Assembly: GCA_963778185.1 (NCBI GenBank) | Contig: CAVZTF010000005.1 | Location: forward strand, 16,227 to 80,226 | Source of the DNA: an uncultured Gammaproteobacteria bacterium | GTDB lineage: Bacteria; Pseudomonadota; Gammaproteobacteria; Steroidobacterales; Steroidobacteraceae | DNA: 64,000 bases | Direction of reading: 5' to 3' | In this document: in pieces, positions 28,999 through 33,502 of the stretch | Numbering within the stretch: position 1 is the first letter of the stretch | How the letters are laid out: each line of letters opens with the position of its first letter | Notes under the pieces: generated by a model | Told to the model about the DNA's origin: nothing | Seen by the model: the letters and a program-made list of their open reading frames with translations, nothing else | The model's database searches: none | Made by a program: the position numbers and the translations under genes

Positions 28999-29039
28999 AA
29001 CGGCCGGCTTCCCATGCGGGTGGCCGGCCGTTTTCGTTT
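28999..29039 (+). terminator. Rho-independent terminator after the parvulin gene
   Basis: Stem AACGGCCGGC (28999-29008) / GCCGGCCGTT (29023-29032), followed by TTCGTTT. Confidence 0.75.
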
Positions 29040-29260
29040 GGGGCTGCGCAAGCCCCGACGGAGGGGCTGGATCGTGGGCGTCGAACGGTTCGACAGGATG
29101 AGTCCTGCGGCGAAAGGTCGGGCATCGCAGGTCGTGCCGCGAGGCCTTGCCCGCGTTGCAATGAGCGGGTCGACGGGCCGGAAATCAGAATTAATATTGT
29201 TTCTTAGGTATCACTCGTATCTTATTGGTTCTTGTGGATTAAAAAACCACCGTCAACGAA

Positions 29261-29278
29261 CTGTGAAGCAGGTCACAG
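29261..29278. promoter_or_regulatory. CRP/Vfr/Clp-type palindrome cTGTGA-N6-TCACAg
   Basis: Exact match to both TGTGA/TCACA half-sites with a 6-nt spacer, extended to an 18-bp palindrome. It sits inside the AT-rich leader of the island. Confidence 0.4.
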
Positions 29279-29502
29279 TTTCCAGCCCGACAGCCTTGGC
29301 CTGAGCTGCAGCCACGCATCTCGCGACTTGACATAGACGCTGGCCAGCGCGCTCGTCACCCGCCGGACGGGGTTCCTCGCGGGCGCTTTAGACATCCTCG
29401 CCAGCCCACTGAATAGCCGACGTTTTTCGCTCGGCCTCCGTGCCCGCCACTCGCAGACCGCGCCCCGGTTCCCCGACGCCGGGACCCGAATATGTTCAAC
29501 GC

Positions 29503-29530
29503 TTGACCCGTTATGTCCGGCCGATATAGT
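29503..29530 (+). promoter_or_regulatory. Candidate sigma-70 promoter for island gene A
   Basis: TTGACC (29503-29508), a 16-nt spacer, then TATAGT (29525-29530). It is 80 nt upstream of the preferred start codon. Confidence 0.35.
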
Positions 29531-29609
29531 CCGGCCAGGGAGTTAACAATAACCACTGATGTCAGCGGTAATTGCATTACGGATGGGGGAACCCGCGTTC
29601 GGGCTTGAA

Positions 29610-30449
29610 ATGAGCGAGAACTTCAAGAAACCGTTGCTTGCAGCGTGCCGGCACCTGCTGCACCCGCTCGTCCGTATTTTGTTGCGCCACGGCGTTTCCT
29701 ACGGCGAATTTTCGGACTCGGTGCGTGGCGCTTACATCGATATCGCGGCGGCTGAATTGGTGCCTCCCAACCGGCCCCAGACCGACTCGCGCCTCGCGAT
29801 CCTGACCGGCCTGACGAAGCGAGAGGTCACTCGAATTCGCACCGCAGACGCGAATGCGGACGATGCCGTCGGCCTGAATCGTATCGCCCGCGTGCTCCAA
29901 GGATGGAGCCAAGACCCTGAGTATCTCGGGCCGTACGGCCTCCCGCTCGAAGTGCCGTTTGCCGGCGAAGGCAGATCGTTTGAGCAACTGGTGTTGAAGT
30001 ACGCAGGGGACGTTTCTCCCAGAGCCCTGATTGAAGAACTGCTCCGCGTGGATGCCGCGCTGGAAACGGAGGACGGCTACGTCCGCCTGCTCAATCGAAC
30101 CTATCTGCCTACTCCGCTTGACCCAGTCGGCTTAGAGCGACTGGGAAACGTTGTCAATTTCTTCATCGACACTGTCGATAACAACCTGCAGATCAAGCGA
30201 AAGGGCGAAGGCCGCTTTGAACGTTACGCAATAACCATGGAAGGGCTGTCGCCAAGGGACTACGAGGCGTTTGACGCGTTGGTCCGAGAGAAGGCGCAGG
30301 AACTCCTCGAGATCCTGGATGACTGGCTCGGACAGCACGAGATCAAAGGTGGCCACAAGTTGTCACCGAGCGAATCCATCCGCACCGGCGTTGGGATCTT
30401 TCATTTCGTCGACAGGTCTCCGCCGAACCCGGAAGAGACGCTGCAGTAA
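29610..30449 (+). CDS. Uncharacterised protein, island paralogue A (possible HTH-containing regulator)
   Basis: ORF 29559..30449. I prefer the ATG at 29610 (MSENFKKPLLAACRHLLHPLVRILLRHGVSY) because it aligns with the N-terminus of paralogue B. It is collinear with 32519..33433 over its full length. I recognise no known family. Confidence 0.7.
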   Translation: MSENFKKPLLAACRHLLHPLVRILLRHGVSYGEFSDSVRGAYIDIAAAELVPPNRPQTDSRLAILTGLTKREVTRIRTADANADDAVGLNRIARVLQGWSQDPEYLGPYGLPLEVPFAGEGRSFEQLVLKYAGDVSPRALIEELLRVDAALETEDGYVRLLNRTYLPTPLDPVGLERLGNVVNFFIDTVDNNLQIKRKGEGRFERYAITMEGLSPRDYEAFDALVREKAQELLEILDDWLGQHEIKGGHKLSPSESIRTGVGIFHFVDRSPPNPEETLQ

Positions 30450-30512
30450 CCATCAGACTTTTTGCTACTTCCGACTTAGAGCGACGCCAAATTGAAGAAC
30501 AAGGGGACAGCG

Positions 30513-32457
30513 ATGACCGAGAAGCGCCGTTACCAAGGTATTGCACTTGCAGTGTCCTTGGCGCTTGGCACCTTTGCCGCCAGCGCATCCGCAAAGAACG
30601 CGATCGACCGGGACGCTGCCAAGGTTGAGCGCCCCAGCGCCATCATCGGCAGCGATGCGATCATCGGCAGCGACGCGATCATCGGTAGCGACGTCCAGAA
30701 GGTGAAGCGTCCAGTGCCATCATCGGCAGTGACGCGATCATCGGTAGCGACGTCCAGAAGGTGAAGCGTCCCAGTGCCATCATCGGCAGCGACGCCATCA
30801 TCGGCAGCGACGCCATCATCGGTAGCGACGTCCAAAAGGTGAAGCGTCCCAGTGCCATCATCGGCAGCGATGCGATCATCGGCAGTGACGCCATCATTGG
30901 CAGTGACGTCCAGAAGGTGAAGCGTCCCAGCGCCATCATCGGCAGCGATGCGATCATCGGCAGTGACGCGATCATCGGTAGTGACGTCCAGAAGGTGAAG
31001 CGTCCCAGTGCCATCATCGGCAGCGATGCGATCATCGGCAGTGACGCGATCATCGGTAGCGACGTCCAGAAGGTGAAGCGTCCCAGTGCCATCATCGGCA
31101 GCGATGCGATCATCGGCAGTGACGCCATCATTGGCAGTGACGTCCAGAAGGTGAGGCGTCCCAGCGCCATCATCGGCAGCGATGCGATCATCGGCAGTGA
31201 CGCCATCATCGGCAGTGACGTCCAGAAGGTGAGGCGTCCCAGCGCCATCATCGGCAGCGATGCGATCATCGGCAGTGACGCGATCATCGGTAGCGACGTC
31301 CAGAAGGTGAAGCGTCCCAGTGCCATCATCGGTAGCGATGCGATCATCGGCAGTGACGCCATCATCGGTAGCGACGTCCAGAAGGTGAAGCGTCCCAGCG
31401 CCATCATCGGCAGCGATGCGATCATCGGCAGTGACGCCATCATTGGCAGTGACGTCCAGAAGGTGAGGCGTCCCAGCGCCATCATCGGCAGCGATGCGAT
31501 CATCGGCAGTGACGCGATCATCGGTAGCGACGTCCAGAAGGTGAAGCGTCCCAGCGCCATCATCGGCAGCGACGCGATCATCGGCAGTGACGCGATCATC
31601 GGCAGTGACGTCCAGAAGGTGAGGCGTCCCAGCGCCATCATCGGCAGCGATGCGATCATCGGCAGCGATGCGATCATCGGCAGCGATGCGATCATCGGCA
31701 GTGACGCGATCATCGGTAGCGACGTCCAAAAGGTGAAGCGTCCCAGCGCCATCATCGGCAGCGATGCGATCATCGGCAGTGACGCCGATCATCGGTAGCG
31801 ACGTCCAGAAGGTGAAGCGTCCCAGCGCCATCATCGGCAGCGATGCGATCATCGGCAGTGACGCGATCATCGGTAGTGACGTCCAAAAGGTGAAGCGTCC
31901 CAGTGCCATCATCGGCAGCGGCGATCATCGGCAGCGATGCGATCATCGGCAGTGACGCCATCATCGGTAGCGACGCGATCATCGGCAGCGACGCATTCAA
32001 GGGCATTGCAAGCGACGCCTTGGTGCATGGCCCAATTGAACAAGTCAACGTCGCGACCGGCCAGGTAACGATTCTGGGCCAGCTGTATCAAGCAGCACCC
32101 AAGTCGACCGCAGTTGCGAAACTCGCGAGCCAACTCGCCAGTGGCCAGACAGCATTCGCCACGGTGCTCGGACAACCCGACAATCAGGGAAGAAATCGAG
32201 CCAGCAAGTTCTTGCTCGTTTCGCAGTCGTATGTGCCTGGAGCGAGTAAAGTGATGGTCACCGGTCGAGCCACAAACGTTGACGCTAGCAGCGGCACGTT
32301 CACAGTTGGCAAGCTGGTTGTGGACTACACGGCATTGCTGTCTACCCGCGAGGTTAGGGTCATGACAGGCGACGTCGTTGCAGTCGTGGGTCTGCAATCG
32401 GCGCAGGGCGCTCCATTGCAGGCAGTAGGCATTCGATCACCGGCGAATTTGCGATAG
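30513..32457 (+). CDS. Exported tandem-repeat protein (54 x AIIGSD); three frame breaks at 30711, 31786 and 31920
   Basis: AAGGGGA Shine-Dalgarno 7 nt before the ATG. Sec signal MTEKRRYQGIALAVSLALGTFAASASA|K. The repeat array occupies four track ORFs that join collinearly. A 154-aa non-repetitive C-terminal domain ends at the TAG at 32455-32457. Confidence 0.8.
30639..31992 (+). repeat. Coding tandem-repeat array with an 18-bp sub-unit and a 78-bp super-unit
   Basis: 54 copies of GC[G/C]ATCAT[C/T]GG[C/T]AG[C/T]GA[C/T], grouped into 17 blocks separated by 16 copies of GTCCA[G/A]AAGGTGA[A/G]GCGTCCCAG[C/T]. Confidence 0.95.
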
Positions 32458-32518
32458 GGCCGCTGTCGACGTTGGAAATGTGGCCCCTCCGGGCGGCAAG
32501 TCCGCGAGGTCGGTGCAA

Positions 32519-33433
32519 TCAACCTTTCGTGTCGGGTGCGATGCGTTGATCGGCTGAGTCGGCCGTAGACGTCCCATTGCCGTCTTGCATTGTGCCGCCC
32601 TGGACATCGATCAGGGCGCCTTCGTAGTAAAAGACGCCAATCCCGACGCGTGGCCCCTGCTCGCCCGAATCAGTTAATGGCTGCTCGTGCGAGCTTAGCC
32701 AATCATCCATCGTGTGCAGAAAATCGGCCGCGCGAACACGCGCAAGTTGCCTAAACAGAGGCACAGCAGCGGGTATCAAAGTGTCGGAGTAAGCCAGGCG
32801 TTGAATAAACGGGTCCTGCTTAGCTGGGCCAGTGTTGTGAGCCAACCCTTCTAGCACCGGCGCAATGATGTGCGCTAACCCAACGACTAAGTCCTCGCCA
32901 ACATCGGCGGGAATGAAGTAACGGCGCAAAGGGACAAGACTGCCGTCAGACATCTCATCGATCGCTTTTGCAGCAAGCAGTTCAGCTCTTACCGCTCCAG
33001 GGGGAACGTCGCCTCCGGCCAGTCTAACTAGCGCGGTGAACGATTCTGACTCACCTGAAACCGGCAGCGTTCTTGGTCGCCCCTCAGGATCGACAAAGGC
33101 CTGATCGACATGCCAGAGCTGAAGCACGCGAGCCGCGTGACTACTTTGCAGTGAAGCGGCGATGGTCGAATCGTCGGCCGCCGCTGCTGCCAGTAATTGC
33201 TTCTTGATTCGCGCGACCTCTTTGCGTGACAGCCCGGTCCTGATCGCCACCCTAGATGTATTCTTTACACGACCTCGATGGTCCCTGTCTCCAAGCGCCT
33301 CTTGCACGAATGCAAGTTTCGCAACTTCGGAGAACTGCTTGTAACCGATGCCAGATCGCAGTAGCACACGTGCGAGCGGACGTAGGCACGAGCCAAGGGC
33401 GGAAAGCACGCGCACTTGCAGCGCATTGTTCAT
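32519..33433 (-). CDS. Uncharacterised protein, island paralogue B
   Basis: 304 aa. It shares with paralogue A: L.PL.R.LLR.G..Y..FS; SR.AI.TGL.R.EV.RI; ARVLQ.W..D; SF..LV...GDV.P.A...ELL; DDWL..HE; R.G.G.F. It is convergent with the repeat gene. Confidence 0.75.
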   Translation of the reverse strand: MNNALQVRVLSALGSCLRPLARVLLRSGIGYKQFSEVAKLAFVQEALGDRDHRGRVKNTSRVAIRTGLSRKEVARIKKQLLAAAAADDSTIAASLQSSHAARVLQLWHVDQAFVDPEGRPRTLPVSGESESFTALVRLAGGDVPPGAVRAELLAAKAIDEMSDGSLVPLRRYFIPADVGEDLVVGLAHIIAPVLEGLAHNTGPAKQDPFIQRLAYSDTLIPAAVPLFRQLARVRAADFLHTMDDWLSSHEQPLTDSGEQGPRVGIGVFYYEGALIDVQGGTMQDGNGTSTADSADQRIAPDTKG

Positions 33434-33502
33434 TGGTCACCGATCAAAAGTGTGGCGGCACGTTGGCCCGCGGCCAGGCGTCGGCCGTAGAAATTCGGCG
33501 CG

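Follow-up and report, generated by a model that had tools for sequence, protein, structure and literature searches.

A gene on the + strand of a 64,000-nucleotide stretch of contig CAVZTF010000005.1 (the window, from an uncultured gammaproteobacterium of the Steroidobacteraceae) encodes a protein that has a predicted export signal and 54 perfect copies of the hexapeptide AIIGSD. We propose that this protein is a length-variable, exported beta-solenoid rod joined to a binding module of OB folds, and that it is produced from a conserved operon led by a DUF6502 gene. To this reading as a whole we assign a probability of about 0.5. By its sequence, the protein belongs to a large uncharacterised family in which short-motif arrays, a tandem OB domain and DUF6502 occur together, and it stands at the end of that family where linkers are minimal.

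According to this model, the locus would encode a functional protein of two modules that leaves the cytoplasm through the Sec pathway. In the first module, AII would form a short beta strand and GSD a tight turn; the AII plus G-x-D layout is a classic strand-turn unit. Stacked in variable copy number, such minimal units most likely build a long rod of beta-solenoid type, which might act as a spacer or in an adhesin-like role. In the window species they abut without a linker and would thereby mimic the hexapeptide repeat of transferases, and a triangular coil like that of the left-handed beta-helix (LbH) is the best geometric guess for the array. For the second module, a tandem OB domain of the DUF5666 type, binding of some ligand or partner is probable, be it in the envelope or extracellularly. 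The repeat gene would stand second in its operon, after the gene for a cytoplasmic DUF6502 protein that we infer to be a DNA-binding regulator, and a DUF6502 paralogue then follows.

The repeat gene, its relatives and the C-terminal domain

The region was read directly in window coordinates and translated in three frames. After repair of three indels, 30513-32457 (+) yields 1947 nt and 648 aa (Table 1). A first-pass annotation, made from the letters alone, had given the same architecture, and each of its numbers was reproduced, from the signal, the linker and the 54 + 16 repeats to the 154-aa tail. The blocks hold 3, 2, 3 (eleven times), 5, 3, 3 and 5 units, that is, three units in 14 of 17, and the periods detected by Tandem Repeats Finder are 18 and 78 nt. 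This regularity is far beyond chance.

The 54 AIIGSD units are encoded by 11 DNA variants. These differ at five sites, every one of them a third codon position of the + frame, and no non-synonymous change was found among the 54 units compared; the spacer VQKV[K/R]RPS varies at two synonymous sites and in its K/R exchange. Since the variation of the unit DNA is synonymous throughout, the AIIGSD peptide is under purifying selection, and the gene is real. The polymorphism is synonymous in the + frame alone, which identifies + as the coding strand and rules out coding of the array on the reverse strand. Two reverse-strand open reading frames (ORFs) of 460 and 364 aa, at 30530-31912 (-) and 30679-31773 (-), are stop-free by-products of the repeat that gene callers could mis-annotate.

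The N-terminus points to export through a predicted Sec-type signal, as had been proposed before. A signal-like arrangement of n-, h- and c-regions is kept in the orthologues, and by a crude rule it is present in 106 of the 155 family representatives that start with Met.

Scanning a genome collection with the upstream protein as query, we recovered 19 loci, nearly all from metagenome-assembled genomes (MAGs) of uncultured Gammaproteobacteria and one from a member of the Steroidobacteraceae. In at least 17 loci or species the cassette runs in the order DUF6502_A, repeat gene, convergent DUF6502_B. Its position between Sua5-IspA-PPIase and RNase T-M48 peptidase is likewise shared by at least 17 species. 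Across loci the C-terminal domain of the repeat protein is 27-62% identical, as against 69-88% for DUF6502_A; the repeat gene evolves fast, and its array shows rapid concerted evolution.

Four orthologues are intact (L001, L010, L011 and L014; 738-1513 aa), and all share the build of the window protein, from the signal peptide through the array to the tail. Their arrays differ from that of the window in spacing and block size (Table 2). Orthologues at the same position in at least 16 related species include ones with 8-residue units; in five such loci (L010, L011, L012, L014 and L017) the units are 8 residues long and have no match to the Pfam family Hexapep. The conserved entity is therefore the motif AIIG[GS]D, and neither the six-residue period nor the super-repeat of three units plus a loop. 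The hexapeptide period and a basic comb along one edge are thus local features.

Table 2. Composition of the repeat arrays in the window and in orthologous loci
Array	Motif, linker and spacer	Motifs per block	Super-repeat
Window	AIIGSD, no linker, + VQKV[K/R]RPS	3 in 14/17 blocks	26 aa
L001	AIIGSD, no linker, + RQKAKRPN	4-8, irregular	32-56 aa
L014	AIIGGD + AA/AN linkers + LAKAKRPN	4	38 aa
L010	AIIGGD + IN linker + RAKAQPA	2	21 aa
L012	AIIGGD, none or AN linker, + LQKSRK	3	26 aa
L011	AIIGGD + AA/AS/AN linkers + VVKAKRAN	1-7, irregular	14-62 aa

The C-terminal domain could be modelled well. An AlphaFold2 prediction built on a 36-sequence alignment reached a confidence (pLDDT) of 93.3 and a predicted template-modelling score (pTM) of 0.86, and it shows the topology beta1-3, helix, beta4-5 twice. 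The top Foldseek neighbours in the PDB were OB folds (RPA, SSB, Stn1/Ten1, IF1, CusF, PilY2), at probabilities up to 1.0 and E-values of 0.07-1, which indicate fold class, not homology. Against PF18914 (DUF5666) the window tail scores 20.3 bits (E 7e-4), below the gathering cut-off of 27 bits, and the profile matches to the tail carry precomputed PF18914 assignments. A profile of the OB domain retrieved nothing significant from the PDB sequences. On the strength of the model we confidently assign two DUF5666-like OB folds to the domain. The tail that the first-pass annotation had called beta-rich is a tandem OB fold related to DUF5666, which puts the protein into an existing, if uncharacterised, family.

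An exhaustive HMMER search (phmmer) with this domain, with hits clustered at 50% identity, gave 371 representative clusters (E <= 1e-3), of which 62 reached E <= 1e-10. The members carry DUF5666 (PF18914) and are all named hypothetical. In 71 of 150 representatives the module of about 150 aa is fused to an array of the type phi-x-G-[STG]-[GD], placed N-terminally in 31 and C-terminally in 40; among the rest, fragments roughly as long as the domain are frequent. The motifs include AIIGGD, AIIGTG, AIGGTG, ITGTG, IQGTG, SMGSG and GITGSD. Among 96 proteins with at least four motif copies, the dominant spacing was 8 residues in 44, 10 in 21, 11 in 10, 9 in nine and 6 in a single one. Two lipoprotein-like members, P0001 (1324 aa, lipobox LVACGG) and P0093 (662 aa), consist of at least six tandem double-OB units and have no short-motif array, which shows that the two OB folds form an extracellular module in their own right.

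Searches of the literature for the motif strings, for DUF6502 and for secreted hexapeptide LbH proteins returned nothing relevant, in agreement with the first-pass annotation, which had recognised no described family with the AIIGSD repeat. Nor did the literature searched describe an association of DUF5666 with phi-x-G-x-[GD] arrays and DUF6502. In a collection of 5.8 billion proteins the whole protein had no matches, the 8000 candidates being swamped by repeat words, and the C-terminal domain alone gave nothing, owing to the word-index limit.

How the array may fold

All 54 units fit the hexapeptide rule [LIV]-[GAED]-x2-[STAV]-x, and Pfam Hexapep (PF00132) matches the window protein over 16 stretches with E 1.5e-57 (189.5 bits, cut-off 27) and the L001 protein with E 7e-87. 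The rule invoked in the first-pass annotation therefore stands. The NCBIfam transferase models all remain far below their cut-offs (the best, LpxD, at 92 bits versus 207), and in that search no transferase model aligned outside the repeat. For the orthologues with 8-residue units we obtained whole-sequence matches to gp5C, PAAR or grass-antifreeze models, with no single stretch over threshold, or nothing at all. It appears that one motif is read by different repeat models according to its spacing. The models Gp5_trimer_C, PAAR and LbR_Ice_bind match the 8-mer arrays of L011 and L014, and the Decapeptide repeat region (PF25296) matches the GITGSDVQAR/LQSR array of P0135 with 45 bits, at its cut-off. 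PF24646 (DUF7640) exceeds its gathering cut-off on the array (window residues ~325-424, 30.6 versus 28.1 bits; L001, 92.7 bits) and may be another LbH-like repeat model.

The composition of the array, with 24% Ile and a grand average of hydropathy (GRAVY) of +0.38, argues against disorder, independently of AlphaFold2. Pfam models of beta-helix or beta-roll repeats, which match the window protein as well as orthologues, also speak for a solenoid. In an AlphaFold2 model of the full protein, built from the single sequence, pLDDT values of 70-83 are reached in the array between residues ~100 and ~330, and each 26-residue stretch holds 3-4 strands. With moderate confidence the model thus predicts an array that is rich in beta structure and resembles a solenoid.

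Several points weigh against a solenoid rod or leave its setting less certain. The mean pLDDT of the full-protein model is 53. The Foldseek neighbours of the array model are weak matches to right-handed beta-helix lyases and tailspikes (E > 0.03, template-modelling score < 0.3). Moreover, AlphaFold2 over-predicts beta-solenoids for perfect repeats (PMC11795689), so that the array model lends weak support. A single rigid fold would not easily accommodate the motif periods of 6-14 and the irregular block sizes of the relatives. Among its genes, the cassette includes no outer-membrane secretion component, which makes both the periplasm and the cell surface possible as the final location. DUF5666 proteins, though detected in proteomes, appear in the literature as mere list entries of unknown function.

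A first alternative takes the hexapeptide likeness at face value. The array would be an idealised LbH of 18 residues per coil, in which Lys/Arg loops leave from the same corner and form a basic comb for a polyanion (exopolysaccharide, extracellular DNA or polyphosphate) or for a mineral or ice surface. This was the proposal of the first-pass annotation, and we consider it unlikely in that form. The agreement of all units with the rule, the Hexapep match and the 14 blocks of exactly three units plus a spacer speak for it. So does the closest orthologue, L001, where 4-8 AIIGSD units lie between spacers: an 18-residue coil with loops would tolerate such irregularity, which a coil of one whole super-repeat could not. 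However, with 4-8 units per block the loops would rotate around the prism, and with orthologue blocks of 2, 3, 4 or an irregular 1-8 units neither the coil of three hexapeptides plus a loop nor the comb can be a conserved functional feature. The loss of the Hexapep match in the other orthologues and the spacing of 6 in one of 96 family proteins also count against it, as do the low scores of the transferase models. In the AlphaFold2 model DVQKVK is the longest strand of the 26-residue coil, not an extruded loop, and no LbH transferase or other LbH structure is found among the Foldseek neighbours. A polyanion-binding stripe is further weakened by the charge of the array, which is about neutral (54 Asp versus 48 Lys/Arg, net -6). 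It is also about neutral in L010 and L012 and lies between -20 and -39 in L001, L011 and L014; a balance of Asp and basic spacers, which holds for the window, L010 and L012, fails there and was rejected as a general rule. A dominant basic stripe for polyanions is therefore no trait of the family. For the window species an exported LbH is still a reasonable structural guess.

A second alternative, which we regard as distinctly improbable, does without a monomeric solenoid. The array would self-assemble in a cross-beta manner, similar to a functional amyloid, or form a flexible low-complexity segment, and the OB domain would be its anchor or nucleator. The spread of periods and block sizes and the bias of AlphaFold2 mentioned above would suit such an array, and Ile-rich strand-turn units would expose Ile outside any single-chain helix. 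Curli and Fap, which are Sec-exported repeat amyloids, provide precedents. Yet the cassette contains no counterpart of dedicated secretion or nucleator genes such as csgBEFG or fapF, either in the window or in the syntenic and distant contexts, and perfect repeats with an Asp in every unit are unlike the imperfect, Gln/Asn-rich repeats of curli.

Frame breaks and the DUF6502 operon

The three indels that had to be repaired (Table 1) raise the question of whether the gene is intact. It could be a pseudogene here, or the array could in part be an assembly artefact of collapsed or mis-polished repeats, so that no 648-aa product exists as reconstructed. Three frame breaks fall within 1.35 kb, two of them in or beside irregular blocks. 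In related MAGs 10 of 16 orthologous repeat genes are frame-broken or truncated, and the L009 array holds a run of N. We scanned metagenomes for contigs that would represent the organism independently and found none, the one sequence returned being a 52% relative cut at the array. An exact-sequence look-up of the window's proteins likewise found none of them in the collection searched. Against this, the three indels are accompanied by no amino-acid substitution in the units, a pattern that neutral decay would not produce. Flanking genes, promoter and ribosome-binding site show no damage, and several orthologues are intact over up to 4.5 kb. Housekeeping genes are fragmented in sister MAGs as well, which points to technical indels: the L019 DUF6502 gene (e.g. 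L019 6001-6879) falls into 5 pieces and the L012 PPIase gene into 3. More generally, L012, L013, L017 and L019 have housekeeping or DUF6502 genes split into 3-5 tblastn pieces, and these assemblies are rich in indels. Because no substitution accompanies the indels, the neighbours are intact and housekeeping genes of sister MAGs are broken too, the three indels are most likely consensus or assembly errors in the repeat, and we think there is little chance that the gene is dead or artefactual. A scan of the whole window for frame switches by third-position GC (GC3) flagged ordinary gene junctions and nothing else.

The least probable reading, to which we give hardly any credence, is a multi-copy precursor cleaved at the basic KR/RR spacers into small AIIGSD-type peptides, like the Kex2-processed repeat precursors of fungi: it would account for the many identical short units that come after a signal peptide and are interrupted by dibasic sites, and for the strong conservation of every unit residue across orthologues, but it is contradicted by runs of 3-8 units without a cleavage site, by the many family members without basic spacers (e.g. 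AIIGTGAD or QTITGTG arrays) and by the lack of a conserved protease or modifying enzyme in the cassette (window, syntenic and distant contexts), and it leaves the large conserved OB module without a role.

Table 1. Features of the repeat gene and its cassette in window coordinates
Feature	Position	Strand	Description
Conserved promoter region	29489-29552	+	consensus scan and 11-species alignment
-35 TTGACC	29503-29508	+	abutted by CGAATATGTTCAAC; 16 nt to -10
-10 TATAGT	29525-29530	+	conserved as (GA)TATAGT
Invariant GAGTTAACAATAAC	29539-29552	+	shortly before DUF6502_A start codon
DUF6502_A, 296 aa	29559-30449	+	Pfam PF20112, E 4e-47; upstream partner gene
Repeat-gene start	30501-30515	+	Shine-Dalgarno AAGGGGA 30501-30507; ATG 30513-30515
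Repeat gene ORF	30513-32457	+	27-aa signal, 15-aa linker, 452-aa array, 154-aa tail (direct reading after repair)
Predicted Sec-type signal peptide, 27 aa	30513-30593	+	MTEKRRYQGIALAVSLALGTFAASASA, then K; cleavage motif ASA before K, A at -3 and -1
Linker KNAIDRDAAKVERPS, 15 aa	30594-30638	+	ends in AKVERPS, a degenerate spacer
Repeat array, 54 AIIGSD + 16 VQKV[K/R]RPS	30639-31992	+	17 blocks, 452 aa after repair
Frame break 1	30708-30718	+	1-nt deletion, C missing from CGTCCCAGTGCC: CGTCC^AGTGCC; within homopolymer
Frame break 2	31781-31793	+	1-nt insertion, GACGC[C]GATCATC; resembles a blend of the GCC/GCG synonymous variants
Frame break 3	31914-31929	+	2-nt deletion, GGCAGCG^GCGATC where GGCAGCGATGCGATC expected
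Non-repetitive C-terminal domain, 154 aa, and stop codon	31993-32457	+	OB1 ~32017-32220, OB2 ~32248-32436
DUF6502_B, 304 aa	32519-33433	-	Pfam PF20112, E 1e-31; convergent paralogue closing the cassette

A DUF6502 gene lies directly upstream of the repeat gene and on the same strand in the window, in at least 17 syntenic loci and in all four distant contexts (L020-L023), with additional copies downstream in two of the latter, L020 and L021. The gap between DUF6502_A and the repeat gene is just 63 bp, which suggests that they are co-transcribed, and the arrangement AAGGGGA-N5-ATG at the start of the repeat gene is conserved in 9 orthologous loci. DUF6502 can occur as 2-3 paralogues that flank the repeat gene (window; L020 4931-8831), and the A and B copies of the window are ~31% identical.

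The 70 bp before DUF6502_A are highly conserved across 11 species, in intergenic DNA that is otherwise divergent, and the AT-rich blocks of the promoter are invariant in the 11-species alignment despite a genome of ~69% GC. The blocks follow the order CGAATATGTT(G/C)AAC, TTGACC, 16-17 nt, (GA)TATAGT and the invariant GAGTTAACAATAAC. The elements GTTAACAATAAC and ATGTTGAAC are conserved within the promoter region; the latter abuts the -35 box, is related to GAGTTAACAATAAC and resembles ATTGTTAAC, the reverse complement of GTTAACAAT. ATGTTGAAC and GTTAACAAT may form a putative pair of inverted operator half-sites that flank the core promoter and serve autoregulation. A scan of the two short intergenic spacers for inverted repeats found none.

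Sequences and alignment of DUF6502 reveal no signal peptide, no transmembrane segment and no catalytic-looking invariant residues, and there are helix-turn-helix-like segments (SRIAILTGLTRKEV; SP..VL.ELLRVGAV..T.DG). A DNA-binding autoregulator is the simplest guess for its function. A search of the PDB sequences with DUF6502 gave nothing significant. We also considered a known defence or phage module and rejected it, as the three cassette proteins had no matches in PADLOC and PHROGs.

The cassette has a GC content of 56-61%, compared with 65-73% in its flanks (window 29000-33500), and yet it is syntenic in at least 17 species; it is an insert of long standing whose composition sets it apart from the housekeeping genes around it. 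These are ScpA, TrpRS, Sua5, IspA and PPIase on one side and RNase T, M48 and ETF on the other. Elsewhere in the window, one tRNA gene (588-659, +) represents the sole Rfam family above its gathering score.

Significance and comparison with known systems

Should the fold prediction for the array be right, nature would provide here an exported beta-solenoid of almost perfect regularity. Close relatives of the protein vary the unit length (6, 8, 9, 10 or 11 residues) and the copy number (from a few to ~140) and keep the motif; the family would then offer a ready series for relating beta-helix geometry to repeat length and for the design of protein nanomaterials. The analysis also brings to light a large family of proteins of the envelope or the exterior, comprising 371 clusters, whose cytoplasmic partner DUF6502 is strictly conserved. 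It is common in soil Gammaproteobacteria that are known mainly from MAGs, and DUF5666 repeat proteins exist in cultured Proteobacteria too. Assemblies and gene calls routinely break up the repeat genes, which leaves the family under-annotated. A broader proposal is tentative: the cassette could define a previously unrecognised, widespread class of beta-solenoid rods that Proteobacteria export through Sec, in which a phi-x-G-x-G/D spacing of 6-14 tunes coil geometry and rod length, with the window protein as its minimal form and the first exported LbH-like helix, the OB module as anchor or cap, and DUF6502 as dedicated regulator.

The nearest likeness of the array is to the hexapeptide repeat (PF00132) that forms the LbH of LpxA, LpxD and GlmU. 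IGSDAI obeys the rule and resembles the Pfam consensus vIGdn, and the three units of a window block equal one LbH turn. Those transferases are cytoplasmic, whereas the window protein is exported and has no catalytic or substrate-binding parts; the transferase models stay under their cut-offs, and the orthologues have 8-residue units. The likeness is most likely convergent, not homologous. In the tail the relation to DUF5666 proteins is one of homology, with an OB-type barrel predicted twice, although the window sequence itself scores below the gathering cut-off.

Like the RTX beta-roll (GGxGxDxUx), the protein is exported and has many short Gly/Asp strand-turn repeats, and family members with 9-residue units (TDAIIGTGR) share its layout. 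It differs in its motif AIIGSD with period 6 and in its N-terminal Sec signal, where RTX proteins have a C-terminal type I signal, and no RTX family of Pfam matched the window protein or the orthologues searched. The octapeptide (VxGxxxxx) triple beta-helix of phage T4 gp5C, PAAR and the grass antifreeze beta-roll are comparable as triangular or flat beta-solenoids of very short units. Their whole-sequence matches are to L011 and L014, with no single stretch over threshold, and the window protein is unmatched. The curli subunit CsgA and FapC are also Sec-exported, stack strand-turn units as a beta-solenoid and evolve rapidly in copy number; their repeats, however, are at least 19-23 aa long, imperfect and Gln/Asn-rich, and they are accompanied by genes dedicated to secretion and nucleation, of which the cassette has none. 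Hexapeptide-like beta-solenoid repeats and DUF5666 OB modules are of known kinds; the conserved genomic pairing in which they occur here is new.

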